From Paludibacteraceae bacterium (GTDB taxonomy: Bacteria; Bacteroidota; Bacteroidia; Bacteroidales; Paludibacteraceae): a stretch of DNA of 64,000 nt. Within the stretch, counting starts at the first letter, position 1, and every line of letters starts with the position of its first letter. Location: NCBI GenBank assembly GCA_017478725.1, contig JAFVDD010000006.1, forward strand, positions 1,169 to 65,168. The letters are read 5' to 3'. This document shows, in pieces, positions 2,911 through 63,684 of this stretch. The position numbers and the translations under genes were made by a program. The notes under the pieces are model-generated. The model had not been told where the DNA came from. It was given only the letters and a program-made list of their open reading frames with translations, and made no database searches.

Positions 2911-2950
2911 CGAAATATCGACATGTCGACATACCGACAAATCGACAGAC
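2911..2950. repeat. period-8 degenerate tandem array, CGACATGN family (5 units)
   Basis: The units read cgaaatat cgacatgt cgacatac cgacaaat cgacagac. The array is intergenic between the yhcH-like gene and glgB. Confidence 0.9.
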
Positions 2951-2971: not shown

Positions 2972-5101
2972 ATGGCAACGAAGAAAGTTAAACATCTGCC
3001 GATCGTGGCTCGGGATCCGTATCTGGAGCCATATGAGGGCGCATTGCAAGGCAGAGCCGATTACGCTGTACGCAAGGAGCAGGAGATCACCAGCGGTGCC
3101 AAACTCGCCGACTGGGCATCAGGATACCTCTATTTTGGGCTTCACCATAAAAAGCCTTACACGGATGCGAAAGGCAAGAAAGTAGCGGGCGAATGGATCC
3201 TCCGTGAGTGGGCTCCCAATGCCACGGCGATATATATCAAAGGCGACATGAACGGCTGGCAGAAAGACGAGAGATACCGTCTGCAGCCAGTCGGCAACGG
3301 TGTATGGGAGGCCAAACTGCCGGAGGATGCTATCCAGCATGAACAGCTGTATAAACTGCTGGTGGAATGGCAAGGCGGGTACGGCGAACGTATTCCGAGT
3401 TATGCGCGCCGCGTGGTGCAGGACGAGCAGACCAAGATTTTCTCCGCACAAGTGTGGGACGAGGAGGAGTATGTTTGGCGGAATAGAAAGCCGTCAGAAG
3501 TCAGCCGTCAGAAGTCAGCCGTCAGAAGTCAGCTGAAGGCAGAAAGCCCCCTCTTTATCTACGAGTGCCATATAGGCATGTCGAGCGAGCAGGAGAAAGT
3601 GAACAGTTATGAGGAGTTCCGCCGCGACGTGCTGCCGCGCATAGCCGAGTTGGGTTACAACTGCATCCAGATCATGGCCATTCAGGAGCACCCCTATTAC
3701 GGCAGTTTCGGGTATCACGTGAGCAATTTCTTTGCCGCGAGCAGCCGTTTCGGTACGCCGAACGAGTTGAAAGCATTGATAGACGATGCGCACGGAAGAG
3801 GCATGAAAGTGATCATGGACCTGGTACACAGCCACGCGGTGAAGAACGAGCTGGAGGGCTTGGGCAATTTTGACGGCACGGGCTATCAGTATTTCCACGA
3901 TGGTGCGCGGCGAGAGCACCCGGCCTGGGACAGTCTCTGCTTCAACTACGGCAAGAACGAAGTGCTGCATTTTTTGCTGAGCAACTGCAAGTTCTGGATT
4001 GACGAATATGACTTCGACGGGTTCCGCTTTGACGGCGTGACCTCGATGATTTACCTCAGCCATGGTCTGGGAGAAGATTTCAACGGCTACGGCAGCTATT
4101 TCAACGGCAACGAAGACGGCGATGCGATCATGTATCTGACGCTGGCGAACAAAGTGATTCACCAAGTCAAACCTGACGCCATCACGATAGCGGAAGAGAT
4201 GAGCGGCATGCCTGGTCTGGCCGCAAAGATAGAAGACGGCGGCGTAGGATTCGACTACCGTCTGGCGATGGGTATTCCGGATTTCTGGATCAAGTATATC
4301 AAAGAAGTGAAGGACGAGGACTGGAAAGCCGGACATATATTGTATGAAATGACCAACAGGCGTGAGGACGAGAAGACCATCAGTTATGCCGAGAGCCATG
4401 ACCAGGCGCTGGTAGGCGACAAGACAATCATCTTCCGGCTGGTAGATGCCGACATGTACTGGCATTTCGAGCACGGTCATGCCAACTATATGGTGGACCG
4501 CGGCATTGCGCTGCACAAGATGATACGTCTTGTGACGGCGAGCACCATCAACGGCGGCTACCTGACCTTCATGGGCAACGAGTTCGGCCATCCCGAATGG
4601 ATTGATTTTCCGCGTGAGGGCAACGGCTGGAGCTACAAATACGCCCGCAGACAATGGAGCCTTGTCGATAATCCGAACTATTTCTTCTCGGACCTCAACC
4701 GTTTTGACGAGGCGATGATTCACCTGCTGAGGGAGAACCTGTTTGTAGAGAAACCTACCGCCGCGGAGAAGAAATACGGCATCGGCAACCACCTGCCGTG
4801 GGTAATGAAATGTTGCGACAACGAGGGTGACCAAGTGGTGGCTTATACGCGCGGCGATCTGGTGTTCATCTTCAACTGGAACGGCCAGCGGTCGTTTGCC
4901 GATTACGGCATCCTGGTGCCAGAAGGCAAATACCAAGTGGTACTGAACACCGATGCGAAAGAGTTCGCCGGCTTCGGGCTGAGCGACGACAGCGTGGAGC
5001 ATTTCACGCAGCACGACGAGCTTTATGCGAAGGACGGGAAGGGCTGGCTGAAGATGTACCTGCCCGCAAGAAGCGCCGTGGTGCTGAAAAGGGGTAAATG
5101 A
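2972..5101 (+). CDS. glgB: 1,4-alpha-glucan branching enzyme (GH13, eukaryote-like type)
   Basis: 709 aa with the GH13 conserved regions DLVHSH, GFRFDGVTSM, AEEMSG and SHDQ, preceded by an N-terminal CBM48-like segment. Confidence 0.9.
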   Translation: MATKKVKHLPIVARDPYLEPYEGALQGRADYAVRKEQEITSGAKLADWASGYLYFGLHHKKPYTDAKGKKVAGEWILREWAPNATAIYIKGDMNGWQKDERYRLQPVGNGVWEAKLPEDAIQHEQLYKLLVEWQGGYGERIPSYARRVVQDEQTKIFSAQVWDEEEYVWRNRKPSEVSRQKSAVRSQLKAESPLFIYECHIGMSSEQEKVNSYEEFRRDVLPRIAELGYNCIQIMAIQEHPYYGSFGYHVSNFFAASSRFGTPNELKALIDDAHGRGMKVIMDLVHSHAVKNELEGLGNFDGTGYQYFHDGARREHPAWDSLCFNYGKNEVLHFLLSNCKFWIDEYDFDGFRFDGVTSMIYLSHGLGEDFNGYGSYFNGNEDGDAIMYLTLANKVIHQVKPDAITIAEEMSGMPGLAAKIEDGGVGFDYRLAMGIPDFWIKYIKEVKDEDWKAGHILYEMTNRREDEKTISYAESHDQALVGDKTIIFRLVDADMYWHFEHGHANYMVDRGIALHKMIRLVTASTINGGYLTFMGNEFGHPEWIDFPREGNGWSYKYARRQWSLVDNPNYFFSDLNRFDEAMIHLLRENLFVEKPTAAEKKYGIGNHLPWVMKCCDNEGDQVVAYTRGDLVFIFNWNGQRSFADYGILVPEGKYQVVLNTDAKEFAGFGLSDDSVEHFTQHDELYAKDGKGWLKMYLPARSAVVLKRGK
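3491..3534. repeat. 3 x 14-nt tandem repeat inside glgB (in frame)
   Basis: The unit ccgtcagaagtcag occurs exactly three times (3491-3532) and is translated as PSEVSRQKSAVRSQ. Confidence 0.95.
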
Positions 5102-5131
5102 ATCCGGATTTCCAGATTTCCGGATCTCTAG
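5101..5131. repeat. period-8 degenerate array, ATTTCCGG family
   Basis: The units read aatccgg atttccag atttccgg atctctag. The array starts at the last base of the glgB stop codon. Confidence 0.85.
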
Positions 5132-5156: not shown

Positions 5157-5939
5157 ATGAAAAAGATTATTTTCCAAGCATTGGCACTATGCACATTGGT
5201 ACTGTGTACGATGTTCACGGGTTGCCAGAAGAAAGCGAATTTGAAAGCCGAGTGGGAGGGCGTTTATCAACGTGCCACGTCTGCTTTCGAGCAAGTCTCT
5301 ACGCCTGACGAGGCCGAGTTGATCATGCAAAACCTCATTGACAGCGCGTATATACTGCTGGATGAAAATATGGGTGCGGAATACTCCGACAGTCTGTTTG
5401 CCGAGATGTATTATATGTTCTCGCCCGAGCAGAAAGAGGCACTCTTCGGCCGTATGGACCGTAAGATGACAGAGTCGGAGTTGATAGCCCCGATTCACAA
5501 GGTTTTCCTGCTGGAGCAAGCCACCTCCGCCAACAACCCTTACACCGATATTCTGGCACTAACGCCGGAAGGTAACGAGTTGTCGCTGAGTTCGCTGGTA
5601 GGCGAAAGCGACTACGTGCTGCTGGATTTCTGGGCCAGCTGGTGCGGTCCCTGCCGCCGTTTGATACCGGTATTGAAAGAGATTTACGCGGGCCAGCCGG
5701 CAGGACATTTCCAGATTTTGAGTTGCTCGGTTGACCGTGACGAGGACGCCTGGCGCAAAGCACTGGAGGAAGAGCAGATGCCATGGCCTCAGGTGCATGA
5801 GGAGGAAGGCATCTACGAGTGCTCCGACCTATACGGCGTACGGGCTATCCCCACCACCATCCTGATCAACCGCGAGGGTATCATCATCGCCCGCAATCCC
5901 GATGAGGCGCAACTGGAGGAGTTGCTTTTCGCAGAATAA
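5157..5939 (+). CDS. TlpA-like thioredoxin-fold thiol:disulfide oxidoreductase lipoprotein
   Basis: 260 aa with lipobox FTGC and the redox motif WASWCGPC. Confidence 0.8.
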   Translation: MKKIIFQALALCTLVLCTMFTGCQKKANLKAEWEGVYQRATSAFEQVSTPDEAELIMQNLIDSAYILLDENMGAEYSDSLFAEMYYMFSPEQKEALFGRMDRKMTESELIAPIHKVFLLEQATSANNPYTDILALTPEGNELSLSSLVGESDYVLLDFWASWCGPCRRLIPVLKEIYAGQPAGHFQILSCSVDRDEDAWRKALEEEQMPWPQVHEEEGIYECSDLYGVRAIPTTILINREGIIIARNPDEAQLEELLFAE

Positions 5940-5970
5940 ATGTATATATAATTAAATTGTAAATATCATT

Positions 5971-6780
5971 ATGCGTGTAATTATTGAACCTTCGTATGAC
6001 CTGCTGAGCCAGTGGGCTGCGAATTATGTAGCAAGACGAATCAATGAGTTTGAGCCGAAAGAGGGCAAGCCGTTTGTGCTGGGTCTGCCGACAGGCAGTT
6101 CGCCGCTGGGCATGTACAAAGCGCTGATAGAGCTCAACAAAGCCGGCAAAGTGTCGTTCAGAAACGTAGTGACCTTTAATATGGACGAGTATGTAGGTCT
6201 GCCGGAAGAGCACCCCGAGAGCTATCACAGCTTTATGTGGAACAATTTCTTCAGCCATATAGATATCCGCAAGGAGAATGTGAATATCCTGAACGGCAAC
6301 GCCGCCGATTTGGAGGCCGAGTGTGCCCGTTATGAGGAGAAAATCAAGAATATCGGCGGTATTCATCTGTTCCTGGGCGGTATCGGTCCTGACGGACACA
6401 TCGCATTCAACGAGCCGGGTTCGTCGCTGAGCAGCCGTACGCGCAAGAAAGAGCTGACCACCGACACTATTATCGCCAACAGCCGTTTCTTTGACAACGA
6501 CGTGAACAAAGTGCCGAAGACGGCGCTGACCGTAGGCGTAGGCACAGTGATGGACGCCAAGGAGGTGCTGATCATGGTAAACGGCCATAACAAAGCCCGC
6601 GCTTTGCAGCACGCTATCGAGGAGCCGATCAGCCATATGTGGACCGTCAGTGAGTTGCAGCGCCACCAGCATGGCATCATTGTCTGCGACGAGGCTGCCT
6701 GCGAGGAACTGAAACTCGGTACGTTCAAGTATTTCAAGGACATCGAGAAAAACAACCTTGACCCCAAGACGTTGTTGTAA
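5971..6780 (+). CDS. nagB: glucosamine-6-phosphate deaminase
   Basis: 269 aa. [22 protein letters not shown] and [16 protein letters not shown] are hallmark NagB motifs. Confidence 0.93.
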
Positions 6781-6801
6781 ATTAAAAATTACAAATTACG
6801 A

Positions 6802-8265
6802 ATGTTGGAAATCTATAATTCGTTAACACGATTCAAAGAGACGTTCAAGCCGCTGCACGAAGGGCATGTGGGCATGTATGTGTGCGGGCCGACCGTTTAT
6901 GGCGACGCGCATTTAGGACATGCCCGTCCGGCTATCACATTTGATGTGCTGTACCGGTATCTGCAGTATTTAGGATACAAGGTGCGCTATGTACGCAATA
7001 TAACGGATGTAGGCCATCTGGAGCACGACGCGGACGAGGGTGAGGACAAGATAGCCAAGAAAGCGCGGCTGGAGCAGTTGGAGCCGATGGAGGTGGTGCA
7101 ATACTACACCAACAGATATCACCGCGACATGGCGGCGCTGAATGTGCTGCCGCCTTCCATCGAGCCTCATGCGAGCGGCCATATCATCGAGCAGATTGCC
7201 TTTGTGCAGAAGATCCTTGACCGCGGCTACGCCTACGTAGCGAACGGATCGGTGTATATGGACGTAGAGAAATACGCCAAGGACTACCCGTACGGCAAAC
7301 TGAGCGGAAGGAACCTACATGATATTATCGCCGAGACGCGTGAACTGGACGGACAGAGCGAGAAGAAACACAGCTATGATTTCGCCCTTTGGAAAAAAGC
7401 AGCGCCCGAACATATCATGCACTGGCCGAGCCCGTGGAGCGAAGGTTTCCCCGGCTGGCATATGGAGTGCTCGACGATGGGCACCAAGTATCTGGGTGAG
7501 CAGTTTGATATCCACGGTGGCGGTCTGGACCTCATTTTCCCTCACCACGAGGCGGAGATAGCACAGAGTTGCGCCGCGCTGGGCAAGGAGAGCGTGCACT
7601 ATTGGATGCACAACAACATGATCACCATCGCCGGCAAGAAAATGGGTAAGAGTTACAACAATTTCATTACGTTGGAGCAGTTCTTCAGCGGCAATCACCC
7701 GTTGCTGAGCAAAGCTTTCGGCCCGATGGTCATAAGGTTCTTTATCTTGCAGGCTCATTACCGCTCGACGGTTGATTTCTCGTCGGAGGCGTTAGAGGCA
7801 GCAGAAAAAGGATTGCAGCGGTTGCAGGAAGCGTATGCGAGACTACAGAAGATCCAGCCTTCAGCCGTCAGCAGTCAGCCGTCTGATCTGCGTCAGCGTT
7901 GCCAAGAGGCCATGGATGACGATCTGAACACGCCGTTTGTGATTGCGGCGCTGTTTGACAGCGTGAAGGCTATCAATACCGTATGGGACGGCAAAGGCGC
8001 TATCAGCGAAGCCGACCTGAATGAACTGCGCGAGGTATGGAAGACTTACGCCATAGACATTCTTGGACTGCGGCTTGAAGAAACAGGCAACGGCGATGAC
8101 AGCCAGCAGAAAGCCTTCCACGGCGCCATTGATCTGCTATTAGGCATCCGTCTGCAGGCCAAGCAGAACAAGGACTGGGCGACCTCCGACAAGATACGCA
8201 ACGAACTGACCGCCCTCGGCTTCCAGATCAAAGATACCAAAGACGGATTCGAATGGAGTATCTAA
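6802..8265 (+). CDS. cysS: cysteine--tRNA ligase
   Basis: 487 aa with a class I HIGH-type motif (AHLGHARP), KMGKS (the KMSKS equivalent), and [16 protein letters not shown]. Confidence 0.95.
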
Positions 8266-9037: not shown

Positions 9038-9111
9038 TAGCGGGACCCAGGATTGAACTGGGGACCTCATGATTATGAATCATGCGCTCTAACCAGCTGA
9101 GCTATCCCGCC
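9038..9111 (-). tRNA. tRNA with CAT anticodon (Met; a lysidine-modified Ile2 cannot be excluded)
   Basis: The manual cloverleaf is: acceptor GGCGGGA/TCCCGCT, D arm GCTC-AGCTGGTTA-GAGC, anticodon stem CATGA/TCATG with loop TTCATAA, T arm CCCAG-TTCAATC-CTGGG. Total 74 nt. Confidence 0.9.
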
Positions 9112-9621: not shown

Positions 9622-9651
9622 GATAATGTACGATTTACGATGTACGATTTA

Positions 9652-11877: not shown

Positions 11878-11951
11878 CGGGGAGTGGCGCAGCCCGGTAG
11901 CGCAACGGTCTGGGGGACCGGAGGTCGCGTGTTCGAATCACGTCTCCCCGA
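11878..11951 (+). tRNA. tRNA-Pro (GGG)
   Basis: The manual cloverleaf is: acceptor CGGGGAG/CTCCCCG, D arm GCGC-AGCCCGGTA-GCGC, anticodon loop CTGGGGG (anticodon GGG, G37), T arm GCGTG-TTCGAAT-CACGT. Total 74 nt. Confidence 0.9.
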
Positions 11952-11988: not shown

Positions 11989-14664
11989 TTATTTCACCAG
12001 TGGCAGGTTCACCTCTGCCACGGCTTGCACCTCTACGCCGATGAGTGCTTTTTGCATCCCGGTATCTTTGCGTACCAGTCCGATCCACCACTCGGCTTCA
12101 TCCATCTCTCCAAAACCGCTTACGCGCAGCGCGCAGCCTTCGCCCAGTACGGGCATTTTCTGCAAATCGAAGTCCCGAATAAGGAACTGCGAGAAATTGA
12201 ACAACGCCACTTGGTAGAGCAGTTCGTTGAGCGCGTTGTCGTCCATCTTGGGCAGCCTCAGCAGAACAACGGAAGGCTGTTTGCGGTCGTCGCTCCATTG
12301 TTGTGCGGCAACCGTGTCGGCCGCAGGAGCGGAGAGTTCGCCGCGTTTGTCAGCCAGGCTGCCGGTAGAGCCGCCTTGCTTGCTCTCCATTCCTTGTCCA
12401 AGCATAGCCAGCATATCTTTGGCCATAGCTCCCAGTTCACTCTCCGGATAACGGGCTACCAGATCCTGCAGTTCGCCGGTAAACGCCTGTTGCCCCTCCG
12501 TACGCGCTACCGCCACAGCGTTCAGGAACAAGAACCGGGGCATCAGAGGGCTGAGCGGGAACTCTGTTTCTGCGTACTTTTTGTCGGCTTTCACCTGTTG
12601 GTACCGGCCTTTGGTGTAGGCGGTATAGGTCTGTGCGTATAGTGAATCCTGCTCCTGCGCCATTCGTTGCAGACGGGCAAAATAGCCGGGCTGGCTGACT
12701 ATCCTGGCCTGGGTGGATTGCGGATAATGCTGTATGATTTTGTTGCGCCAGACGGCAGCCTCGTCGGTGTCGTTGGTGCGGAGTGCTTCCAGATAATAGG
12801 AATAGTAAATATCCAGTAGTGAGGGGTGACCTTCCGCACGTTCTTCCAATTGGCGCAGTGTCTCTGCGGCCTGCGTCAGGTCGTGCAGGTCGTCGCGGTA
12901 GATATAAACCATCTCCACCATCGCTTCGCGCCACAGGCTGTCGCTGGCGGCCAGATCCTGTTCGGAATGAGGTATCTGCTGCAGGTAATACTCGGGTTTG
13001 TGGTTGTCTGTCTCGCGTGCTACGGGAGCCGGTGCCGCAGAGTCAGAGGCCATGGTGAGGGAATCATTCAGTTCGACCAATAGTTCGTCTTCTTCGGGCA
13101 TCGAGGCTGTCACTTGTTTGTTCATACGCCTCCAGTTGTCCTCCAGCGTACGGTTGCCCCATCGCCGACGCCATTCCTGTGCGCCCTGACGCAACAGTTG
13201 CGGATTGTAGAAATACCACTCGCCTTTCTGGGCTCCTCCCCCCAGCATATTAGCGGTGTTCACACTTCGCGGCAGGTTATCGCCTCTGGCTGCATCACGG
13301 GCGTTTTGTGCCAGTTGTGCCGAGTCGGCTTTCTCCCGGGCTATCAGGCCGGCGATAATCTTGTCCACTACCGCGCGCTGCTCGGTTTCGCTCAGTAGGC
13401 TCAGGTTTTGCAGCGAGTCCTGCAATTGTGCTTGGTTGTAATACACAATCAGTTGGTCCAGCACCTCCGAGCGTTGGCGGATACGCTCATAGCGTTCGTC
13501 GCCGGCCGTCAGGATAGTAGCCGCCTCGCGGTAGCAAGGCTGCGCATCCACATAATCATGACGGTCGTAATAGATGTCACCTGCGCGCACCAGTATATCC
13601 GCTTTGGCGCTACCGGCTTGCGTAGCCTCGGTGATGGCTTTGGCGTACATCTCCAATGCCTTGGCGGTGTCGCCCTGAAGGAGATAGATATTACCCATGG
13701 AGCCGTAGATGCGGTCCAGACGGTCTTTGTTTTTGGATTGCTTGCTCATGGTGCGTAACCGGCGCAGTGAGTTTTTGCCGCCCAGCTCAGCGATACGGAT
13801 ACGGGCATTGAAATCCATCTCATTGCTTGGAGCCATCCGGATAACGGATTTATAGGCATGGATGGCGTCGTCCTTGTCGCCCTCCATTTCGTATAACTGC
13901 CCCATCACATACGCAAACCGCGGGCGGTAGATCTTGCGTTTCTCATAGGGAGTGGCTATTTTGACGAATGGCAACGCGGCGTGGTATTGACCGCTATGCA
14001 GCAATATATCCGCTTTGACCGCCGAATAGAAACGCGCATCCTTGCGGCTCAAGGCATCCACCTGAACGCGGTTGAGTATATCTTCCGCCTCGTATTGCCA
14101 GCCCATCTCGGAATACGCCCGCGCAATCCACAACTGGCATTGCGCTACTATATTCGGATCGTTGGCATAATGGCGGGCTACATAATTGAATGTACTGACC
14201 GCCCCGAGGAAATCGCCTTTGTGAAACTCCGCCTCGCCCAGTCGCAGCCAGGCGCGGTACATCTCTGCGTTAAACTCTTCCGACTCCAGCCATAGTTTGT
14301 ATTTGGGGTCTTTGGCACGCTTGGGATCACGTTTGGGTTTGGATTTGATAGAATGAAGTTTGATGCACTTGCGGCATTTCTCAATGGTTTTGTCCATTTG
14401 TGAGGCTGAGGCCTCGGCGGCTTTGTGATTGCTCACAGGATACAGATTGAGCACACGGCTGTAGTCATCCTCGTTGGCGTCACGGATGGCTTTCAAGCCT
14501 TCCTCGTAGGCAATGTTGCCGTTGTAAAGAATGTTATATTTGACTTTGGTTTGGTGGAACGAACGGGTAGCCCACGTATTTTTCTGCGTAGAGCACGACA
14601 TCATTGCCAGACTCATTAAGCCTGTTATGATTCCAATCCCTATAATCCTGCAATCTTTCATCAT
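11989..14664 (-). CDS. porW: TPR lipoprotein, SprE/PorW-like (type IX secretion component)
   Basis: 891 aa with lipobox AMMSC, followed by STQKNTWATRSFHQTKVKYNILYNGN, which matches my memory of SprE/PorW N-termini. Multiple TPR units follow. The family assignment is from memory only. Confidence 0.55.
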   Translation of the reverse strand: MMKDCRIIGIGIITGLMSLAMMSCSTQKNTWATRSFHQTKVKYNILYNGNIAYEEGLKAIRDANEDDYSRVLNLYPVSNHKAAEASASQMDKTIEKCRKCIKLHSIKSKPKRDPKRAKDPKYKLWLESEEFNAEMYRAWLRLGEAEFHKGDFLGAVSTFNYVARHYANDPNIVAQCQLWIARAYSEMGWQYEAEDILNRVQVDALSRKDARFYSAVKADILLHSGQYHAALPFVKIATPYEKRKIYRPRFAYVMGQLYEMEGDKDDAIHAYKSVIRMAPSNEMDFNARIRIAELGGKNSLRRLRTMSKQSKNKDRLDRIYGSMGNIYLLQGDTAKALEMYAKAITEATQAGSAKADILVRAGDIYYDRHDYVDAQPCYREAATILTAGDERYERIRQRSEVLDQLIVYYNQAQLQDSLQNLSLLSETEQRAVVDKIIAGLIAREKADSAQLAQNARDAARGDNLPRSVNTANMLGGGAQKGEWYFYNPQLLRQGAQEWRRRWGNRTLEDNWRRMNKQVTASMPEEDELLVELNDSLTMASDSAAPAPVARETDNHKPEYYLQQIPHSEQDLAASDSLWREAMVEMVYIYRDDLHDLTQAAETLRQLEERAEGHPSLLDIYYSYYLEALRTNDTDEAAVWRNKIIQHYPQSTQARIVSQPGYFARLQRMAQEQDSLYAQTYTAYTKGRYQQVKADKKYAETEFPLSPLMPRFLFLNAVAVARTEGQQAFTGELQDLVARYPESELGAMAKDMLAMLGQGMESKQGGSTGSLADKRGELSAPAADTVAAQQWSDDRKQPSVVLLRLPKMDDNALNELLYQVALFNFSQFLIRDFDLQKMPVLGEGCALRVSGFGEMDEAEWWIGLVRKDTGMQKALIGVEVQAVAEVNLPLVK

Positions 14665-15389
14665 TACAGCAATCCCTTCACATGGCTTTGTGCTGCGACA
14701 AACTCTTTCAGATAGAACGGCTCGTAATAGGCTATCTTATCCATCGGCAGAGCTTCGCCTTGCTTGAGCCTTTGTTCCGCCAAAATGCCCATGTATTGCG
14801 CTTCCGGCACTATTTCCGGAATAAAACGGTAATTCGGGGAATCCAATATCGTTTGGCATTTGGCTGCTCCGTCGCCGAAATAACACACCTCCTCCTTATC
14901 GCTTAATTGTTCTTTTGCGTTCTCGTCCATGATCGCTGCCCGAACGTCGGTCTTTGGCACCAAATTCGTATCGTACACCGCTGTATAAACCTCCATCCGG
15001 CGTGCATCAATCATCGGCAGCAGCAGAGTCCGCCCATTGATATCAGGGTTTTGCGCCTTGGCAGCACTGCAGAGTATTTCCAAGGTGGGAATAGCAATCA
15101 GCGGTACATTCATTCCATAGCAAAGCCCTTTGGCAGTACTGGTACCGATGCGCAATCCCGTGTAACTGCCCGGCCCTTCGCTTATTGCTAAGGCATCGAT
15201 GGTTTCTCGGGGTTTTATCGGGGTTTTATCGGGGTTTTCCCGATGCATTAACAATTGTTCGATATATCGGGGTAGCAGTTTGGCGTGGTTGCCGCCTTCG
15301 CGACTGATCAGTTGTTCCACCACCGCACCGTCTTTCCAGAGGGCTGCCGAACAAACAGAAGTACTCGTTTCTATACAAAGGATGGTCAT
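14664..15389 (-). CDS. tsaB: tRNA threonylcarbamoyladenosine biosynthesis protein TsaB
   Basis: 241 aa with MTILCIETSTSVCSAAL and GPGSYTGLRIG motifs. Confidence 0.9.
   Translation of the reverse strand: MTILCIETSTSVCSAALWKDGAVVEQLISREGGNHAKLLPRYIEQLLMHRENPDKTPIKPRETIDALAISEGPGSYTGLRIGTSTAKGLCYGMNVPLIAIPTLEILCSAAKAQNPDINGRTLLLPMIDARRMEVYTAVYDTNLVPKTDVRAAIMDENAKEQLSDKEEVCYFGDGAAKCQTILDSPNYRFIPEIVPEAQYMGILAEQRLKQGEALPMDKIAYYEPFYLKEFVAAQSHVKGLL
15207..15239. repeat. 3 x 11-nt tandem repeat inside tsaB (in frame)
   Basis: The units read tcggggtttta tcggggtttta tcggggttttc. On the coding strand they encode ENPDKTPIKPR. Confidence 0.95.
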
Positions 15390-15425: not shown

Positions 15426-15433
15426 CAAAAAAT

Positions 15434-15465
15434 AATTGATAATTGAAAATTGATAATTGAAAATT
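15434..15465. repeat. period-7 degenerate array (AATTGAT/AATTGAA x4.5) between divergent promoters
   Basis: The units read aattgat aattgaa aattgat aattgaa aatt. Confidence 0.9.
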
Positions 15466-15488
15466 TTGCATATTCGGTATTTTTTTGT

Positions 15489-15496
15489 ATCTTTGC
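15489..15496 (+). promoter_or_regulatory. -7 box TATCTTTG for cobB
   Basis: TAnnTTTG match 35 nt upstream of the ATG at 15531, with a T-run upstream. Confidence 0.6.
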
Positions 15497-15530: not shown

Positions 15531-16223
15531 ATGAAAATCGTTGTTTTTACAGGAGCCGGCGTCAGTGCCGAGAGCGGTTTGGGTACTTTCCGTGACAGCG
15601 ACGGGCTATGGGAGCATTACCGCGTAGAGGATGTATGCACGCATGACGCCTGGCTGACCAATCCGCAGTTGTGTGTCAAGTTCTATAACGACCGTCGCCG
15701 CGACACGCTGGCAGCGAAACCCAATGCCGCACATTTTGCCATCACGCGTTTGCAACAGTTTTTCCCGGAAACACAGATTATTACGCAGAATATAGATGAT
15801 CTGCATGAGCGTGCCGGTGCCAGGAATGTAGTGCATCTGCACGGTGAAATCACCAAACTGCGTTCTTCCCTTAATGAGACGGCCACGGTGCCGTTGGAGG
15901 GCTGGGAGCAGCACTACGGAGACAGGCATCCGGACGGGTCGCTGCTGAGGCCGTATATTGTTTTCTTTGGCGAAGGAGTGCCGTATTTCGATGAGGCCTG
16001 CCGTATTGTGGCTACAGCAGATATCATGCTGGTGGTAGGTACCAGCCTGAATGTCTATCCGGCGGCTTCGCTTCTCCATTATACCCGCCCGGGAATACCT
16101 ATCTATTTCGTGGATCCCGGTATGCCGGAGTTCGGTGTTTGGGCGGACCATATCACCCATATTCGCAAACCTGCCACCCAGGGAGTGCCGGAGGTGGTGG
16201 AAAAACTGATTGCCAATGGATAA
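15531..16223 (+). CDS. cobB: NAD-dependent protein deacylase (Sir2 family)
   Basis: 230 aa with GAGVSAESGLGTFRD, QNIDDLHERAG and HLHGE motifs. Confidence 0.9.
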   Translation: MKIVVFTGAGVSAESGLGTFRDSDGLWEHYRVEDVCTHDAWLTNPQLCVKFYNDRRRDTLAAKPNAAHFAITRLQQFFPETQIITQNIDDLHERAGARNVVHLHGEITKLRSSLNETATVPLEGWEQHYGDRHPDGSLLRPYIVFFGEGVPYFDEACRIVATADIMLVVGTSLNVYPAASLLHYTRPGIPIYFVDPGMPEFGVWADHITHIRKPATQGVPEVVEKLIANG

Positions 16224-23142: not shown

Positions 23143-23174
23143 GTACAATGTGCGAATGTGCGATGTACAACTTG

Positions 23175-30600: not shown

Positions 30601-30684
30601 ATGTTAATGTACATAGGGACGATGTACCATGTACGAAGAATGTCCCAATTTAAAATAAACAGACTTATAAAATCAACAGACGCA

Positions 30685-31977: not shown

Positions 31978-32010
31978 GAAGAAGTACGAAGGTACGATGT
32001 GCGAAAGGCA

Positions 32011-32931
32011 TTACCACACTAATGTGGCTGCTACCGGCCGGTGATCCGAGCCGGTAGCTTCTTTTATGATCCTGCAATCGGCAGGAACAAGGCTCTTGGA
32101 ACAGAGAATATAATCGATGTGTACGCCCAAGCCGCGTTTCTTGCAGGTCGTGCCCCACTGTCCCCAGGAGGTCTCTGCCCAGGCGTCACGCAGACCGTGG
32201 CTCAGCTTGAGATAGGTGTAACTCATAGGTGTGGAATTGAAATCTCCCACTACAATCACGGGGTAAGGGCTGGCGTCTATCTCTTTGCGTACGATGCGTG
32301 CCTGCTCGCGTCGCAAAGGGCGCGCGCGTTTCCATTTCTTCTCCAGTTTCTGTGCCGACGAGCGCACGCCTTCGTAATTGCGCATCTGTTCCGCTTCGGC
32401 TATATCCTCCGCTTTGAAACTGTATGACTCCAAGTGGTTGTTGAAGAGGCGGAGAGTGTCGGTTCCTACCACTATGTCGCAGCGGTTGGAGAGGTTGCCG
32501 CGGGTAGCGTAATGGATGGACTGTTTGTGGATAAGCGGGTATTTGCTCCACACCATTGTGCCGAACTGGTGCCGGCTGTCGTATTGCGAGAAATCCAGGT
32601 AGGAATACTTGTATTGGCGGCTCATGATCTCTCTGACCTCCGCCAGAGTCAGCCAGCGCGGATTCTTATATACATCCACTTCCTGCAAACATACGACATC
32701 CGCATCCTGTGCAGCCAGGTATTTCAGCACATCATTCTCCGCCGGCTTTTTATAGCGGCTCATGGCGTTGGTGTTCCACGTCAGTACCGTCAGCTGGTGC
32801 GGTTTGTCGGCCAGCTCTGCCTCGGTAGGGGTACTGCCGTGGCTGAACATCAGCCATACGCATCCGCCTACTGCCGCCAGCAGCAGCAAATGGACCACAC
32901 GCCGGAATATATGTCCTCTATTCCCTTTCAC
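32011..32931 (-). CDS. endonuclease/exonuclease/phosphatase (EEP) family protein, membrane-anchored
   Basis: 306 aa. The start codon at 32929-32931 is GTG. The product has an N-terminal TM helix, LTVLTWN, CLQEV and a terminal GSDHRPV motif. Confidence 0.75.
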   Translation of the reverse strand: MKGNRGHIFRRVVHLLLLAAVGGCVWLMFSHGSTPTEAELADKPHQLTVLTWNTNAMSRYKKPAENDVLKYLAAQDADVVCLQEVDVYKNPRWLTLAEVREIMSRQYKYSYLDFSQYDSRHQFGTMVWSKYPLIHKQSIHYATRGNLSNRCDIVVGTDTLRLFNNHLESYSFKAEDIAEAEQMRNYEGVRSSAQKLEKKWKRARPLRREQARIVRKEIDASPYPVIVVGDFNSTPMSYTYLKLSHGLRDAWAETSWGQWGTTCKKRGLGVHIDYILCSKSLVPADCRIIKEATGSDHRPVAATLVW

Positions 32932-32948
32932 CTTTCACTTTTCACCTT

Positions 32949-34532
32949 TCAGTTCCCTTTCGGCACCATAGTGACCAGAGGAATCACCATTTCCTCCAGC
33001 GATATACCGCCGTGCTGGAAAGTGTTGCGGTAGTATTGCGCATAGTAATTGAACTGGTTGGGGTAGGCGAAGAAATCGCTGCCGGTGCAGAACATATAAC
33101 TGCTGCTCACGTTCGGGCAGGGCAGTCCTACGCGTTTCGGCTGCTCGACAGTCATCACGCTTTTGCTGTTGCAGTTGAGCGCTTTGCCTACCTTGTAGCG
33201 GATATTGGTGTTGGTGTTTTTGTCGGCGATGATTTGTACGGCATTCTTCACGCGGGTGGTGCCGTGGTCGGTGGTCAGCACCAGTGTGTAGCCCGACTCG
33301 GCGGCGCGTTTCAGCAGGTTGTAGGTGGGCGAGTGTCTGAACCAGCTCAGTGTCAGACTGCGGTAGGCCGCTTCATCGTTAGCCAGCTCGCGCATCATCT
33401 TGCTCTCCGTCCGCGAGTGGGAAAGCATGTCGATGAAATTGAGCACGACGATATTGAGCGGAGTCTTGGTGCCTTTGAGTTGCGCAATGACGCGTTCGCA
33501 GAAATCGCTTTCGTTGACTTTCCAATAGGTGAAGGTCTCGCGCCGGCGGTAGCGGTCCAGAAGTGTTTGTACGAGTTCTTTTTCGTATTGGTTCTTGCTC
33601 TCCTCATCGCCTTCCTCCACCCAGTATTGCGGATACATCTCCTGTATCTGCAGCGGCAGCAGACCCGAGAAAATAGCGTTACGGGCATATTGTGTGGCGG
33701 TAGGCAGGATGGACATATACTGTTCTTCCTGACGGATGGTATAAAACTCGCTCAGCAGCGGCTGGATGGTTTTCCACTGGTCGTAACGGAAATTGTCAAT
33801 CACGCACAGCAGCACTTTCTCCCCTTTGTCGAGAAGAGGGAATACCGAGTGCTTCATCACGTTGTGCGACAGGATGATGTCGCCGGAATTATCCCCTTTC
33901 GGCTTTGGGTTTTCCACCAAGGAGACATAGTTTTTCTGCACCCATTTGCCGAAGGCGGCATTGGCCTGTGCGCGCTGGTCTTCCAGCATGGACCGCATGG
34001 GTGAGTTCTCCAACTCGATATCCCAGTGGCTGAGTGTCCGCTCTACGGCTTTCCATTCGTCAAACGTGGCGGCGGTGTCTATCATATACGATATATCGCT
34101 CCATTCCTGGCGGTAGTTGTCGCGTGCGTGCTCGCTCACAATGGCCTGCTGATGGATATGTTTTTTCAGGCACAGCAGTATCTGGTTGGGATTGACGGGC
34201 TTGATCAGGTAATCGGCTATTTTCTCGCCGATAGCCTCCTCCATGATATGCTCTTCCTCGCTCTTGGTGATCATCACAACCGGCACTTCCGGCCGCAGTC
34301 GCTTGATCTCCTGCAGTGTCTCCAGACCCGTGAGACCGGGCATGTTCTCGTCCAGAAAAACGATGTCTATCGCATCGCTCTCTCCGTGTGGCTCCCCTGC
34401 TCCGGTTCGGAAACGGTCCAGAGCATCGCGGCCGTTGGTGGCGGTCACCACTTCATAACCTTTGTTGTTCAGATAAATGATGTATGGTTGCAACAAATCT
34501 ATTTCGTCATCAACCCAAAGTATTTGGCTCAT
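32949..34532 (-). CDS. porX: response regulator with a PglZ/alkaline-phosphatase-like domain (PorX family)
   Basis: 527 aa with a receiver domain (ILWVDDE ... FLDENMPGLTG ... KP) fused to a PglZ-type domain (LNFIDMLSH, TTDHGT). The family name is from memory. Confidence 0.7.
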   Translation of the reverse strand: MSQILWVDDEIDLLQPYIIYLNNKGYEVVTATNGRDALDRFRTGAGEPHGESDAIDIVFLDENMPGLTGLETLQEIKRLRPEVPVVMITKSEEEHIMEEAIGEKIADYLIKPVNPNQILLCLKKHIHQQAIVSEHARDNYRQEWSDISYMIDTAATFDEWKAVERTLSHWDIELENSPMRSMLEDQRAQANAAFGKWVQKNYVSLVENPKPKGDNSGDIILSHNVMKHSVFPLLDKGEKVLLCVIDNFRYDQWKTIQPLLSEFYTIRQEEQYMSILPTATQYARNAIFSGLLPLQIQEMYPQYWVEEGDEESKNQYEKELVQTLLDRYRRRETFTYWKVNESDFCERVIAQLKGTKTPLNIVVLNFIDMLSHSRTESKMMRELANDEAAYRSLTLSWFRHSPTYNLLKRAAESGYTLVLTTDHGTTRVKNAVQIIADKNTNTNIRYKVGKALNCNSKSVMTVEQPKRVGLPCPNVSSSYMFCTGSDFFAYPNQFNYYAQYYRNTFQHGGISLEEMVIPLVTMVPKGN

Positions 34533-35589
34533 AGTTTCTCCATTTGTTTATCAGGTTAGCCATGTCTTCCGGCCATTCGCTGTCAAAAAACATGCGTTCG
34601 CCGGTGCGCGGATGGGTGAACCCCAATGTGCGTGCGTGCAACACCTGGCGCGGACACAGCGCAAAACAGTTTTCTATGTATTGTTTGTATTTCTGGGTGC
34701 GCAGACCTTTCAGTATCTCCATTCCTCCGTATTTCTCATCGGCAAAGAGGGGATGCCCGATATGTTTCATATGTACACGGATCTGGTGGGTCCGTCCGGT
34801 CTCCAGCTTGCACTCCACAAGCGTCACGTACGGGAAACGCTCCAGCACCCGCCAGTGGGTCACCGCCTCTTTGGCCTGCGGACATTCCTCGGGATCCCAG
34901 ACGCGGTAGATGGTGCGGTCGCGGTTGTCGCGGGCCAAAGCACCTACAATCGTGCCGCTGTCCTCCTTGAATGTCCCCCAGACCAGAGCGTTGTAAGTCC
35001 GCTCGGTGGTGTGGTCGAAGAACTGTTTGCCCAGGTTGGCTTTCGCCTCCGGCGTTTTGGCGATCAGCAGCAGTCCGCTGGTGTCCTTGTCAATGCGGTG
35101 AACAAGACCTATGGACGGATCATTCATGTCAATCTGACTACTGAAGGCGGATGGCTGAGAGCTCTCTTTTTCAAAATGCCATGCGAGCGCGTGCAGCAAG
35201 GTGTGCTCGTAATTGCCGTGACCGGGGTGAACCACCAAGCCTGCGTTTTTGTTGACTACCAGCAGGTCCTCGTCCTCGTAAACGATATGGAGCGGTATGT
35301 TCTCCGGCGTGATGGTGTAGTCGTGCGGTTCGTGGTCCAGCAGCACCTGGACTACATCGCCGGGCTTGACTTTGTAGCTGGCGGCTACGGGTTTGCCGTT
35401 CACCCACACATTGCCGGCGTCCGCAGCCGTCTGGATACGGTTGCGGCTGGTGTTGGTCATATGCTCGGCAAGGTATTTGTCAACCCGCACTTTGCCCTGA
35501 CCCTTATCTACCTCACACCGCCAGCGCTCCCATATGTCTTCATTCGTCCATTCGTCCATTAGAACATTCGCCTTTCGCCGTTCGTCCAT
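34510..35589 (-). CDS. rluD: RluA-family 23S rRNA pseudouridine synthase (RluD-like)
   Basis: The track start is a TTG; the first ATG is at 35587-35589, in a TAATG overlap with the upstream stop. The product has an S4 domain and the catalytic HRIDKDTSGLLL motif. Confidence 0.85.
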   Translation of the reverse strand: MDERRKANVLMDEWTNEDIWERWRCEVDKGQGKVRVDKYLAEHMTNTSRNRIQTAADAGNVWVNGKPVAASYKVKPGDVVQVLLDHEPHDYTITPENIPLHIVYEDEDLLVVNKNAGLVVHPGHGNYEHTLLHALAWHFEKESSQPSAFSSQIDMNDPSIGLVHRIDKDTSGLLLIAKTPEAKANLGKQFFDHTTERTYNALVWGTFKEDSGTIVGALARDNRDRTIYRVWDPEECPQAKEAVTHWRVLERFPYVTLVECKLETGRTHQIRVHMKHIGHPLFADEKYGGMEILKGLRTQKYKQYIENCFALCPRQVLHARTLGFTHPRTGERMFFDSEWPEDMANLINKWRNYEPNTLG

Positions 35590-35590
35590 T
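35541..35590. repeat. period-8 degenerate array (6 units) forming the 5' end of rluD
   Basis: The units read cattcgtc cattcgtc cattagaa cattcgcc tttcgccg ttcgtcca. They are translated as MDERRKANVLMDEWTNE. Confidence 0.85.
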
Positions 35591-36538: not shown

Positions 36539-36730
36539 ATGAAGAAAATGCTTCTTATCGTAGCAGTTGCATTCGCTGCAATCAGCTGCTGCGGCAACAA
36601 GGGCGAGCAGAAATGTGCAGAGAAACAGTGCTGCAAAGACAGCGCTGCTGTATGCTGCCAGGCTGACAGTGCTAAATGTTGCGCTGACAGCGTAAAGGCT
36701 TGCTGTGCTGACACTACTCTGGCTGAGTAA
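36539..36730 (+). CDS. 63-aa cysteine-rich small lipoprotein (12 Cys, five CC pairs)
   Basis: It has its own promoter box, a signal peptide with lipobox AISC, and the periodic pattern CC-x6-8-CC. A strong terminator follows directly. The overlapping antisense ORF 36436..36744 has no such signals. Confidence 0.7.
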   Translation: MKKMLLIVAVAFAAISCCGNKGEQKCAEKQCCKDSAAVCCQADSAKCCADSVKACCADTTLAE

Positions 36731-36801: not shown

Positions 36802-36841
36802 ACTAGTCAGCTAGTCAACTAGTCGGCTAGTCAACTAGTCC
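36802..36841. repeat. period-8 CTAG array (5 x CTAGTCNN)
   Basis: CTAG occurs at 36803, 36811, 36819, 36827 and 36835. The last unit supplies the gpmI stop codon. Confidence 0.95.
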
Positions 36842-38370: not shown

Positions 38371-38432
38371 ATCTATAAATCTTAACAGTTTAACTATTTA
38401 ACGTTTCGATGTATCGAAACCATTTTAACTCT

Positions 38433-38894
38433 TTAACGCGCAAGTTTCATCACTTGCGCTATGGTGCGCGGGTCGTCCGCTTCGCGGAGCGACTGGCGTT
38501 TGTCGTAGCTGTGCTTGCCCTGGCAGAGCGCAATCTCCATCTTGGCGAGACCCTTCTCGTTGATGTAGAGCAGCAGCGGCACAATCGTTTTGCCGGTGTC
38601 CTTGGTGGCTTTTTCCAGTTTGCGTATCTCGCGGCGCTGCAGCAGCAGTTTGCGGTCGCGCTTGGCCTCGTGGTTGGCGTAGGAACCGAAACGGTACTCG
38701 GCTATATGCATCTGCTTGACGTACATCTCGCCGTGCTCCACCTGACACCAGCTGTCCACCAGCGAGGCTTTGCCCTCACGGATGGATTTGATCTCTGTGC
38801 CGAAGAGCTGGATTCCGGCGGTGTAGCGGTCCAGAATGATATATTCAAACCTCGCCTTGCGGTTTTCTATCCGTATGTTGCTCTTCTGTCTCAT
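38433..38894 (-). CDS. smpB: SsrA-binding protein SmpB
   Basis: 153 aa with NRKARFEY ... GTEIKSIR ... and a basic C-terminal tail. Confidence 0.93.
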   Translation of the reverse strand: MRQKSNIRIENRKARFEYIILDRYTAGIQLFGTEIKSIREGKASLVDSWCQVEHGEMYVKQMHIAEYRFGSYANHEAKRDRKLLLQRREIRKLEKATKDTGKTIVPLLLYINEKGLAKMEIALCQGKHSYDKRQSLREADDPRTIAQVMKLAR

Positions 38895-40076: not shown

Positions 40077-40127
40077 TAGCCGATTTCGTAAAATTGAACG
40101 GTGAAAACTGAAAACTGAGAACTGAAA

Positions 40128-40553
40128 ATGACAAAGTTATCGGAAATATTAGCTATAACCGGCAAGCCCGGTTTGTACAAACTGGTCAGCCGCGGCAACA
40201 ACATGCTGATTGTGGAGAGTCTGGTGGACGGCAAACGTACGCCTACCTATGCCCGCGACAAGATTGTGGCGCTGAGCGATGTGTCGATGTTCACCAACGC
40301 CGATGATGTGCGCCTGAGCGAGGTGCTCACCTCCGCCGGCAAGAAAGAGGGGTTGCAGCCCGTGGCGATGGATCCCAAGAAAGCCGCCAACGCGGAGCTG
40401 CAGGCATGGTTTGACGAGGTGCTGCCCGACTGGGACCGCGACCGGGTCTATCCTTCGGATATCCGCAAACTGATCTCGTGGTACAACATCCTCGTGAAGG
40501 CCGGTATCACCGATTTCAGCCTGGAGGAAGAGCCCGCCGAAGAGGAAAAATAA
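40128..40553 (+). CDS. conserved hypothetical protein (DUF5606-like)
   Basis: 141 aa. The N-terminus ILAITGKPGLYKLVSRGNNMLIVESLVDGKRTPTYA matches my memory of this Bacteroidota family. Confidence 0.55.
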   Translation: MTKLSEILAITGKPGLYKLVSRGNNMLIVESLVDGKRTPTYARDKIVALSDVSMFTNADDVRLSEVLTSAGKKEGLQPVAMDPKKAANAELQAWFDEVLPDWDRDRVYPSDIRKLISWYNILVKAGITDFSLEEEPAEEEK

Positions 40554-40598
40554 CTAGTCAGCTAGTCAACTAGTAAACTAGTCGCCTAGTCAGCTAAA
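40553..40598. repeat. period-8 CTAG array (5 x CTAG + CTAA)
   Basis: CTAG occurs at 40554, 40562, 40570, 40578 and 40586, and CTAA at 40594. Confidence 0.95.
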
Positions 40599-42763: not shown

Positions 42764-42808
42764 ACTAGTCAGCTAGCAAGCTAGAAACCTAGTCAGCTAG
42801 TCAACTAC
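42764..42808. repeat. period-8 CTAG array in the 5' leader of the giant gene
   Basis: CTAG occurs at 42765, 42773, 42781, 42789 and 42797, then CTAC at 42805. Confidence 0.95.
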
Positions 42809-55152: not shown

Positions 55153-55202
55153 GACAGGCACACCCGCTAAAACGACAAAGCTCGCCCGCTAAAACGAAAA
55201 GA

Positions 55203-55227
55203 CTCGCCTCAACGGGCGAGCCTTTTC
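55203..55227 (+). terminator. rho-independent terminator after the GH105 gene
   Basis: The stem ctcgcc-tcaacg-ggcgag is followed by CCTTTTC. Confidence 0.6.
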
Positions 55228-55230
55228 ATT

Positions 55231-55251
55231 ACTAGTCAGCTAGTCAACTAA
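55231..55251. repeat. short period-8 CTAG array (CTAG, CTAG, CTAA)
   Basis: CTAG occurs at 55232 and 55240, and CTAA at 55248. The last unit is the stop codon of the minus-strand OMP gene. Confidence 0.9.
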
Positions 55252-61450: not shown

Positions 61451-61497
61451 TTATCTGTTATCTGGTTATCCGGAATTCTGGAAATCCGGCATTCTAA
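61451..61497. repeat. period-8 array, ATTTCCGG family (6 units)
   Basis: The units read ttatctg ttatctgg ttatccgg aattctgg aaatccgg cattctaa. The last unit contains the potC stop codon (61494-61496). Confidence 0.85.
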
Positions 61498-63640: not shown

Positions 63641-63654
63641 TGTTGTTCTGGTTT

Positions 63655-63684
63655 TCTAGTTGACTAATTGGCTAGTCGGCTAGT
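63655..63684. repeat. period-8 CTAG array (CTAG, CTAA, CTAG, CTAG)
   Basis: CTAG occurs at 63656, 63672 and 63680, and CTAA at 63664. The CTAG at 63672 supplies the potA stop, so PotA ends ...KLAD encoded by the array. Confidence 0.9.

Follow-up and report, generated by a model that had tools for sequence, protein, structure and literature searches.

Between the divergent genes for a TsaB-like protein (14664..15389, −) and a SIR2 protein (15531..16223, +), the 64,000-nt stretch of a Paludibacteraceae bacterium analysed here (contig JAFVDD010000006.1; "the window" below) carries the array AATTGAT AATTGAA AATTGAT AATTGAA AATT, and a sequence-only reading of the window had placed short degenerate tandem repeats of this kind at almost every gene junction. 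This raises the question of how such arrays arise and whether they serve the genes beside them. The array is located at 15432..15465 (no strand assigned), where Tandem Repeats Finder (TRF) reports 4.9 copies of the 7-nt unit AATTGAT/AATTGAA (as a 14-nt dimer, 2.3 copies without mismatch), and autocorrelation at lag 7 led to a match of 88% (p<0.0005), compared to 100% for the 14-nt period. TTTG at its end (15465-15468) and TAtcTTTG 19 nt downstream (15488-15495) can be read as putative -33 and -7 promoter boxes, following the known Bacteroides consensus with boxes at these two positions. From the evidence given below, the arrays look like a by-product of a lineage-wide duplication of short stretches, kept where selection tolerates them and involving no dedicated device, and they are best assigned to the known heptanucleotide-repeat class of prokaryotes, of which the window is an unusually rich Bacteroidales case.

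Repeats were detected with TRF at a low threshold (score of at least 30), and junctions were defined on a gene map for which gene calls were combined with Pfam and Rfam matches. The 55 TRF rows obtained for the window were merged to 48 arrays with a total of 1447 nt, whereas 7.7±2.3 arrays with 162 nt were obtained when the whole window was dinucleotide-shuffled 100 times, an excess of about 6-fold; for rows with a score of at least 44 the numbers were 28 observed and 0.47 expected. When each junction of the intergenic DNA (3.9 kb) was shuffled separately, 18 arrays with 555 nt stood against 1.3±1.2 arrays with 29 nt (14-fold), and the highest array number in 200 such shuffles was 6, so that the claimed density relative to composition-matched sequence is borne out. 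Arrays cover 10% of the intergenic and 1.4% of the coding bases (3.4 and 0.45 arrays per kb), and a period of 7 or 8 was assigned to 16 of the 22 arrays in intergenic DNA. A typical array consists of 2-6 copies with a match of about 70-100%, and perfect copies are rare (3489-3533, the 14-mer at 15434-15465, and 42951-42977). "Almost every gene junction" was nevertheless an overstatement, as a TRF array is present in 18 of the 34 junctions of at least 10 nt (53%), with sub-threshold periodicity detected by autocorrelation in a few further ones, for example 38379-38437 and 63641-63671. Among the twelve sites that had been listed individually, nine carry TRF arrays; autocorrelation against 2000 shuffles gave p<=0.0005 at seven of the twelve, and TRF rather than autocorrelation backs 55161-55204 (period 22, 2.1 copies, score 76) and 23141-23169 (a perfect 8-nt unit in 2.1 copies at 23147-23163). 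The remaining three are weak, namely 30601-30640 (p=0.07), 31981-32010 (p=0.11) and most of the region 2190-2400, where significance is confined to 2330-2400 (p=0.0015). Four assemblies showed no indels relative to the window over 16.8 and 20.4 kb at 99.99-100% identity, although these samples may not be independent, and exact-protein look-ups matched only contigs of essentially the same strain, again without indels. The lack of copy-number differences among these near-identical assemblies is as expected for arrays that are short and degenerate. As the four assemblies agree and cultured isolates carry such arrays too, an assembly artefact is ruled out.

For comparison with other bacteria, relatives were collected by a scan with the iPGM protein, using one genome per species, which places the window among uncultured rumen Bacteroidales/Paludibacteraceae. 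The set comprises 12 sister species (L006-L017; 84-95% protein identity, 238 kb) and 68 other Bacteroidales loci (L018-L085; 71-77% protein identity, 1.15 Mb) including Bacteroides oleiciplenus, Parabacteroides massiliensis and P. hominis. The number of arrays per 100 kb, for all periods and for period 7-8 respectively, was as follows.

Window: 75 and 43.8
Sister species (238 kb): 93 and 31.1
Other Bacteroidales (1.15 Mb): 60 and 17.1
E. coli K-12 (100 kb): 12 and 1.0
S. meliloti pSymA: 26 and 2
B. anthracis pXO1: 70 and 6
Nostoc plasmid: 66 and 10

Relative to first-order Markov shuffles, period 7-8 was enriched 12-fold in the window (expected 3.6±2.2 per 100 kb) and 5.7-fold in three cultured isolates (21.7 compared to 3.8 expected); no such excess was detected in E. 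coli (1.0 compared to 4.1 expected) or in pXO1. The density had been called unusual for a bacterial chromosome, which is correct in comparison with shuffled sequence and E. coli, but not within the Bacteroidales: the total of 7.5 arrays per 10 kb in the window is exceeded by 25 of the 80 other loci, and in period 7-8 density the window ranks sixth of 81, at some 2.5 times the mean of the Bacteroidales and inside the range of its own clade. By the criterion set in the sequence-only reading, the idea that this genome stands out among Bacteroidales is thus not supported, and a high array density is a property of the Bacteroidales as a whole, strongest in this rumen clade. Array coverage in the other Bacteroidales amounts to 5.9% of intergenic and 0.9% of coding bases, with periods 9 and 12 dominating coding DNA and period 7 intergenic DNA. 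The Bacteroidota were singled out for a high density of short tandem repeats in a 2025 survey (PMC12699852); within the literature collection that was searched, no description of heptamer arrays in Bacteroides specifically was found. A much denser array content was seen at the 21.5-kb locus of L010 (21.8 arrays per 10 kb, about 3 times the window), which holds a 123-nt TCAGCNG array (4358-4480) and period-9 arrays as mirror-image sets (1038-1156 and 3240-3327).

Five orthologous junctions (PglZ/EEP, EEP/rhomboid, PASTA/RluB, SmpB/iPGM and DUF5606/NIF3) contain another unit or no array in each species, and those with an array are longer by roughly the array length. At PglZ/EEP the unit is of GAAAGGT type in the window, TTAAATGG in L006, ACTGAAT in L009 and AAATCAT in L011, with no array in L010 and L012. 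A metagenome scan with the PASTA protein led to one useful close relative (L091, 89% nucleotide identity), which has three TGAAAGG units at this junction instead of four, an exact 7-nt indel, and which lacks the 58-nt array-bearing block 30615-30672 upstream of the adenylate kinase gene. Between L010 and L012 (92% identity), array-internal length differences of 21, 22, 14 and 21 nt were observed, and a 45-nt TAATTYT array of L009 is missing from L011. Several arrays match better at a multiple of their unit than at the base period, as at 15434-15465 (see above), 3489-3533 (100% compared to 71%), 36802-36840 (95% compared to 80%) and L010 15019-15070 (21 nt; 100% compared to 73%). Therefore, units that had already diverged were recopied as a block, a pattern well known from slippage or unequal exchange within tandem arrays. 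Inverted array pairs, found in Parabacteroides (AGTTGAA.../...CAACTTT) and in one IMG/VR contig, would be the expected product of template switching across a hairpin. Such heptamer or octamer pairs, separated by about 20-25 nt, were seen at L080 17565-17643, L085 17721-17806 and L097 ~4130-4230, with units such as AGTTGAA xN ... CAACTTT xN or CAGCTAGT x3 ... CTGACTAGCTGACC, and are predicted to form long hairpins with tandem-repeat stems. A viral origin was also considered, for which the evidence is uninformative: one IMG/VR sequence (three contigs) has a similar array with an inverted partner, and a fourth match is a chance 17-mer.

Slippage and template switching, both named in the sequence-only reading, thus fit the whole-unit indels, the perfect 14-, 16- and 21-nt higher-order copies and the inverted pairs. 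Short stretches of DNA would often be duplicated head to tail in Bacteroidales, most strongly in the rumen Paludibacteraceae-like clade, with 7 or 8 nt as dominant unit sizes besides 9 and 11 nt and the multiples 14, 16, 21 and 22 nt, the likely cause being slipped-strand mispairing or template switching in replication. From two copies on, slippage would add or remove whole units or blocks of units, point mutations would blur the copies, giving them their "rhyming" appearance, and variant units would spread through the array, leading to a fast drift of the unit sequence. Selection would then clear harmful arrays, and survivors would be confined to tolerant DNA: the region from a stop codon to the zone of about 20 nt ahead of the next start, spacers beside terminators or promoters, N-terminal signal regions, and surface loops or linkers of proteins, provided that the total length is divisible by three and that the sense strand of the unit is free of stop codons. 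We infer the mechanism itself, the reason for the preference for 7-8 nt and the neutrality of the arrays from these patterns. That local slippage-type duplication and decay in tolerant DNA are the whole story we consider probable, though with clear reservations.

The location of the arrays agrees with such tolerance. Besides 15432..15465, the following junction arrays were assigned in the window.

2911..2947 (+): CGACATNN x4.6, assigned to the CGACAT family, beginning 2 nt past the DUF386 stop, with 24 nt left up to the GlgB-like ATG (TRF)
5103..5125 (+): TCCGGATT/TCCAGATT x2.9, 2 nt past the GlgB-like stop (TRF); its CCGGAWTTCCNGA motif is found again at 61451-61493
5937..5971 (+): AT-rich 17-nt unit x2.1, filling the redoxin/NagB-like junction (TRF)
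6779..6803 (+): AAATTAC x3.6, taking up the entire 21-nt NagB-like/CysS junction (TRF, autocorrelation)
9629..9651 (−): TACGATT x3.3 (mRNA sense AATCGTA), filling the GreA/HIT junction (TRF, autocorrelation)
23147..23163 (−): perfect AATGTGCG x2.1 with ATGTACA copies at its flanks, SecDF/ClpP junction (TRF)
30601..30640 (−): irregular ATGTAC copies, a weak tandem array upstream of the adenylate kinase gene
31978..32010 (no strand assigned): GTACGA/GTGCGA-type copies where the rhomboid and EEP genes converge, under the TRF threshold
32924..32951 (−): CCTTTCA x4 (sense TGAAAGG), adjoining the PglZ stop, 25 nt from the EEP start (TRF)
35541..35590 (−): CATTCGTC x6.5 (sense GACGAATG) at the PASTA stop and RluB-like start, with several in-phase ATGs (TRF)
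36802..36840 (+): ACTAGTCA/GCTAGTCA x4.9 (95% match as a 16-nt dimer), between a terminator and the stop codon of iPGM (TRF)
38379..38437 (−): GTTAAANN copies on both sides of a GGTTTCGATACATCGAAAC hairpin, SmpB/iPGM junction, under the TRF threshold (p=0.001)
40102..40128 (+): TGAAAAC x3.9, running into the DUF5606 ATG (TRF, autocorrelation)
40552..40596 (+): CTAGTCAG-family x5.6, from within the stop codon of DUF5606 to 11 nt ahead of the NIF3 GTG at 40608 (TRF)
42765..42807 (+): CTAGTCAG-family x5.4, leader of the giant Flg_new protein gene (TRF)
55163..55208 (no strand assigned): 22-nt direct repeat x2.1 past the GH88 gene stop (TRF)
55231..55250 (+): CTAGTCAG-family x2.5, directly after a terminator hairpin, giving the TAG stop of the convergent gene 55248..57215 (TRF)
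61451..61493 (−): TTATCTG/CCGGAWTT copies adjoining the permease gene stop (TRF, autocorrelation)
63641..63671 (−): degenerate 8-periodic junction with a decayed CTAGTTGACTAAT copy of the CTAGTCA family (p=0.0005)

In 70 co-directional junctions with a single array, the array lies a median of 7.5 nt from the upstream stop and leaves a median of 22 nt free before the next start; it is nearer the stop in 47 and nearer the start in 23 (p=0.006). The same stop-hugging pattern was observed in the window for the arrays at 2911, 5103, 32924 and 40552 and for the repeat-rich stretch 61451-61493, beyond which the 32 nt ahead of the next start codon are array-free and A-rich in mRNA sense. The array that had been described as ending in an ATG (40103-40130) indeed does so. 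In contrast, the GTG at 32931 inside the EEP array, proposed before as the EEP start, is probably not the start, since the one-unit indel in L091 would shift the frame and the gene caller begins at 32898; a protein look-up with the GTG-start sequence gave no match, as would be expected for a wrong start. For NIF3 (DUF34; 40608-41540, +) the start is almost certainly GTG 40608 and not the ATG 40686 of the gene caller, judging from the conserved N-terminus (..IIDIIESVAP..WDNSG..) encoded by 40608-40690 and kept in all sister species. An RNA element after the 40552 array was considered as well, and the conserved block, read by eye, turned out to be this N-terminal coding region. The N-terminal residues that the 35541-35590 array would encode are not conserved among orthologues.

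Beyond junctions, arrays were found in the first codons of open reading frames (ORFs), in signal regions and in frame within loops of enzymes.

3485..3548 (+): perfect AGCCGTCAGAAGTC x3.2, in frame, residues 172-193 of the GlgB-like protein (TRF)
7855..7883 (+): CAGCCGT x4.1, in frame, CysS residues 352-361 (TRF)
15203..15238 (−): 11-nt unit x3.3, in frame, residues 51-63 of the TsaB-like protein (ENPDKTPIKPRET) (TRF)
35131..35166 (−): TCAGCCA-type (sense) heptamer array, in frame, encoding ESSQPSAFSSQI as part of the variable loop of a pseudouridine synthase
42951..42977 (+): perfect TCTGCGCAACC x2.5 (11 nt), in frame, N-terminal region of the giant Flg_new protein (TRF)
57087..57200 (−): two arrays, 14 nt x1.9 (perfect) and 23 nt x2.3, in the first 43 codons of ORF 55248..57215 (TRF)
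60114..60153 (−): CGACAT-family block (sense TTCGACATATCGACATGTCGTCAT...), codons 8-20 of a TPR protein ORF, residues 8-19 being FDISTCRHIVLS
62798..62837 (−): CGACAT-family block with homology to 60114-60153, within codons 5-17 of the longest ABC permease ORF, residues 5-16 being FDISSCRHVVMS

If an ATG within the last of these is the true permease start, the block could be leader sequence. In the RluB/RluD-like pseudouridine synthase, almost all genomes encode the surface loop between WHF and IDxNDP by a heptamer array with a unit of their own, and the protein sequence on either side is highly conserved over the genomes compared. Besides the TCAGCCA type of the window, the units are AATTAAA in L006 and L016, ACAAAGT in L010 and L012, AATGACC in L009, ATCAATC in L011 and AGTCAAG in L013; in L015 the loop is absent.

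Heptanucleotide repeats are the commonest class of long simple sequence repeats (SSRs) in prokaryotes, for which slippage was proposed (Mrazek, Guo & Shah 2007, as relayed in PMC4679880 and PMC4692102). As far as the class is portrayed in these two papers, the arrays of the window share with long SSRs of 5-11-nt units the head-to-tail arrangement, the excess over random sequence, units that are not a multiple of three and most commonly 7 nt long, a location mostly outside coding sequence with multiples of three inside it, and the variation between relatives. They differ in being short (2-6 copies) and degenerate, where the class is usually defined by long, perfect or near-perfect tracts, so that most would escape searches for perfect repeats, in period 8 being as common as 7, and in the many different units within one genome. 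Genome-specific heptamers are known as cyanobacterial STRR and as GGGAATC or GGGGA(T/C)T of Xanthomonas and Nostoc (PMC4692102), and TAACTGA repeats occur in Beggiatoaceae, cyanobacteria and a few Bacteroidetes including Paludibacter (PMC4679880). Common features are intergenic heptamer arrays often located beside start or stop codons, the same junctions occupied in relatives with differing length and sequence, and inverted pairs. The recurrence of one unit at many loci of a genome, described for those families without a mechanism (PMC4692102, PMC4679880), may have its counterpart in the small unit families treated below. Unlike in those cases, no single unit dominates a genome here, several small families being present instead, and in-frame arrays occur in conserved enzymes. 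Tandem TAACTGA, GGGAATC, GGGGAYT, CCCCAGT, TTGGTCA or GACTGGG was not found in the window; the nearest to a canonical heptamer is AAACTGA (40102-40128), one base from the Beggiatoaceae TAACTGA (PMC4679880).

Other repeat systems were compared and rejected. Phase-variable contingency repeats, for which the tetranucleotide tracts in Haemophilus and Neisseria are an example, likewise consist of tandem copies close to gene starts and change by slippage. Their tracts, however, are long and perfect and vary from cell to cell and strain to strain, whereas the window arrays are degenerate and show no copy-number polymorphism over the four assemblies, with the reservation on sample independence made above. 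REP/BIME elements share with the CTAGTCAG arrays the short length, the extragenic location mostly at gene 3' ends beside terminators, palindromes (ACTAGT) and a dispersal without common flanks. However, the latter are tandem 8-mers and not a single imperfect palindrome of 20-40 nt in many dispersed copies, they occur 4-5 times in 64 kb without the conserved GTAG-type head, no RAYT gene was seen in the 64 kb of genome at hand, and most other arrays are non-palindromic. A CRISPR array can be dismissed, as the units of 7-23 nt are directly adjacent, compared to 24-48-nt repeats set apart by unique spacers of about the same size.

Several observations weigh against local duplication as the whole story, above all the recurrence of unit families at several loci of one genome, which slippage leaves unaccounted for. 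The canonical unit is identical in 3.9% of within-genome pairs compared to 0.7% of between-genome pairs, and unit pairs with at most one mismatch within genomes number 63, compared to 29.6±5.8 after label shuffling (maximum 56 in 1000). Arrays of CTAGTCAG type are located at 36802, 40552, 42765 and 55231, all on the plus strand, with a decayed copy near 63660 (~63655-63685). The four arrays all start with (T/A)(T/A)ACTAGTCAGCTAG and have a 16-nt dimer and 16-20-mers in common, in unrelated flanks. They also hold 17 (77%) of the 22 CTAG sites of the window, a tetranucleotide for which 249 sites are expected (ratio 0.09). From the common 16-20-mer, the same left edge and this share of CTAG, an independent local seeding of the four is therefore very unlikely. 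Furthermore, L009 and L011 are 92% identical overall with unrelated pseudouridine-synthase loops, and in-frame enzyme arrays are restricted to steps of 21 nt or to a change of the whole block, yet are wholly different at this identity. Finally, over the 81 sequences, co-directional junctions hold 4.06 arrays per kb, convergent ones 1.85 and divergent ones 1.71; this 2.2-fold difference between co-directional junctions and the two other types could reflect function and not tolerance.

A non-local templated spread in addition to slippage, in which blocks or seeds of about 20-45 nt are copied between loci of one genome and then remodelled locally, is one rival explanation, with ectopic gene conversion, template switching between arrays or a mobilising activity as possible routes. 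Unit families occupy 2-9 loci per 20-64 kb sampled per genome, with a within-genome sharing of 2-5 times the between-genome level, leading to genome-specific dialects: CTAGTCAG at 4-5 sites, CGACAT at 3-4 and CCGGAWTT at two in the window, TCAGCNG at 4-9 sites in L010 and L012, TAATTYT at five in L009, and ATTTGAN at three in L006. The same junction is filled by the dialect of each genome, as for DUF5606/NIF3 (CTAGTCAG in the window, TCAGCNG in L010 and L012) and downstream of the iPGM stop (CTAGTCAG in the window, ATTTGAC in L006 and L014, TGAAAGAG in L016). The CGACAT blocks 60114-60153 and 62798-62837 (~40 nt) have the same two ends in two unrelated genes. Members of a family are mostly co-oriented (48 same and 15 opposite pairs), and ten informative pairs split 5:5 between gene direction and absolute strand. 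On the other hand, neither a transposase nor terminal repeats, target-site duplications or common flanks were seen, the likeness within genomes may partly reflect genome-specific composition or motif-dependent expansion rates, the sample covers 20-64 kb per genome, and families may have spread slowly through ordinary recombination. A larger mobile element around the CTAGTCAG arrays is rejected on account of their unrelated flanks, as is a general enrichment of palindromes in arrays, since only 0-8.5% of the sites of the other 15 palindromic tetranucleotides fall in arrays (array share of the window 2.3%). Two of the CTAGTCAG arrays (36802 and 55231) supply, as read from the sequence, the TAG stop of a convergent gene, the iPGM stop coming from the last CTA of 36802-36840. 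On balance, such a spread is a tentative alternative to slippage alone, perhaps right in one case out of a handful. Slightly more doubtful still is an active non-local process, by templated copying or an enzyme activity, that writes genome-specific 7-8-nt repeat blocks into tolerant sites; if true, it would account for dialects such as the CTAG-bearing CTAGTCAG arrays and for the wholesale replacement of in-frame arrays between genomes only 8% diverged.

The preference for co-directional junctions would also be explained if the arrays were functional cis-elements, either binding sites for a protein with a 7-8-nt register or unstructured spacers aiding initiation in the Shine-Dalgarno-less Bacteroidetes. 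Under this explanation S1, cold-shock or RRM-type RNA binders would be candidates, and a DNA-binding protein for the CTAG arrays, whose 8-bp register presumably resembles tandem trp-repressor half-sites. Arrays are somewhat A-richer in the sense strand (0.36 compared to 0.32) and more often without any predicted structure (45% compared to 22%), CG(T/C)ACAT and CGACAT copies are in mRNA sense wherever flanking genes define one, and like proposals exist for TAACTGA repeats upstream of start codons (PMC4679880). Against this, orthologous junctions hold unrelated units or none, arrays lie beside the stop codon with about 20 nt ahead of the start left free, and protein loops, signal regions and convergent junctions carry them equally. 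The RNA folding energy of 151 junction arrays is the same for sense and antisense (p=0.34); arrays are predicted to be less structured than nearby array-free pieces because of their composition, yet more structured than their own shuffles, so that an unstructured leader is rejected as a general explanation. No array of the window is covered by an Rfam RNA family. The role as spacer, insulator, linker or leader, the other option of the sequence-only reading, thus finds no support from folding, from presence or absence at orthologous junctions or from the occurrence in protein loops and signal peptides; individual arrays may still have one, and functional cis-elements as the general explanation appear improbable.

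Chance, low-complexity composition or a metagenome-assembly artefact is hardly credible for arrays that exceed dinucleotide and Markov shuffles 6- to 14-fold, are identical in four assemblies, are far shorter than sequencing reads and occur in cultured isolates, even though three of the twelve listed sites are individually non-significant and AT-rich DNA yields many low-score TRF hits (70 per 100 kb in pXO1 compared to 28 expected).

Apart from the arrays, some further features of the window were observed. A 165-nt non-coding stretch (41541-41705, +), with NIF3 on one side and a 243-aa protein lacking Pfam hits on the other, contains blocks conserved in L007 and L012, for example CGCCTCTTAG..AGAGGG, and GCTCTTCGrTCyGCAAAC on the opposite strand; Rfam gave no match for it even at E<=1, and a leader or RNA element not described before may lie here. 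A DUF805b RNA motif (RF02914, 41.7 bits) was matched at 1763-1797 (−) in the 712-nt divergent region 1742-2453. A 63-aa ORF at 36539-36730 (+), followed by a clear terminator, has a lipoprotein-like signal (..AISCCGN..) and a Cys-rich, internally repeated body (CCKDS.., CCQADS.., CCADS.., CCADT..); L091 shows an 18-nt indel in this ORF. The giant ORF 42842-53035 (+; 3397 aa) carries Flg_new and Flg_new_2 domains, and its start is called differently by other assemblies (3366 and 2997 aa). Genes for tRNAs are located at 9038-9111 (−) and 11878-11951 (+); the latter falls in an apparent overlap of two large ORFs from the list of longest ORFs, and therefore the MiaB-like gene ends or starts earlier than its longest ORF.

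If the arrays are mutational litter, as local duplication and decay would imply, they displace start-codon calls, with the EEP, NIF3, RluB-like and permease genes as examples in the window, introduce lineage-specific inserts into conserved proteins and make intergenic Bacteroidales alignments unreliable. The findings suggest a spectrum of short insertions in the Bacteroidales that is strongly different from the one in E. coli. Such a difference bears on models of genome-size balance, on strain typing in the gut microbiome with unit numbers as markers, and on the origin of new spacers, signal peptides and protein linkers, and with their many culturable and genetically tractable species the Bacteroidales lend themselves to testing both the preference for 7-8 nt and the re-use of units.

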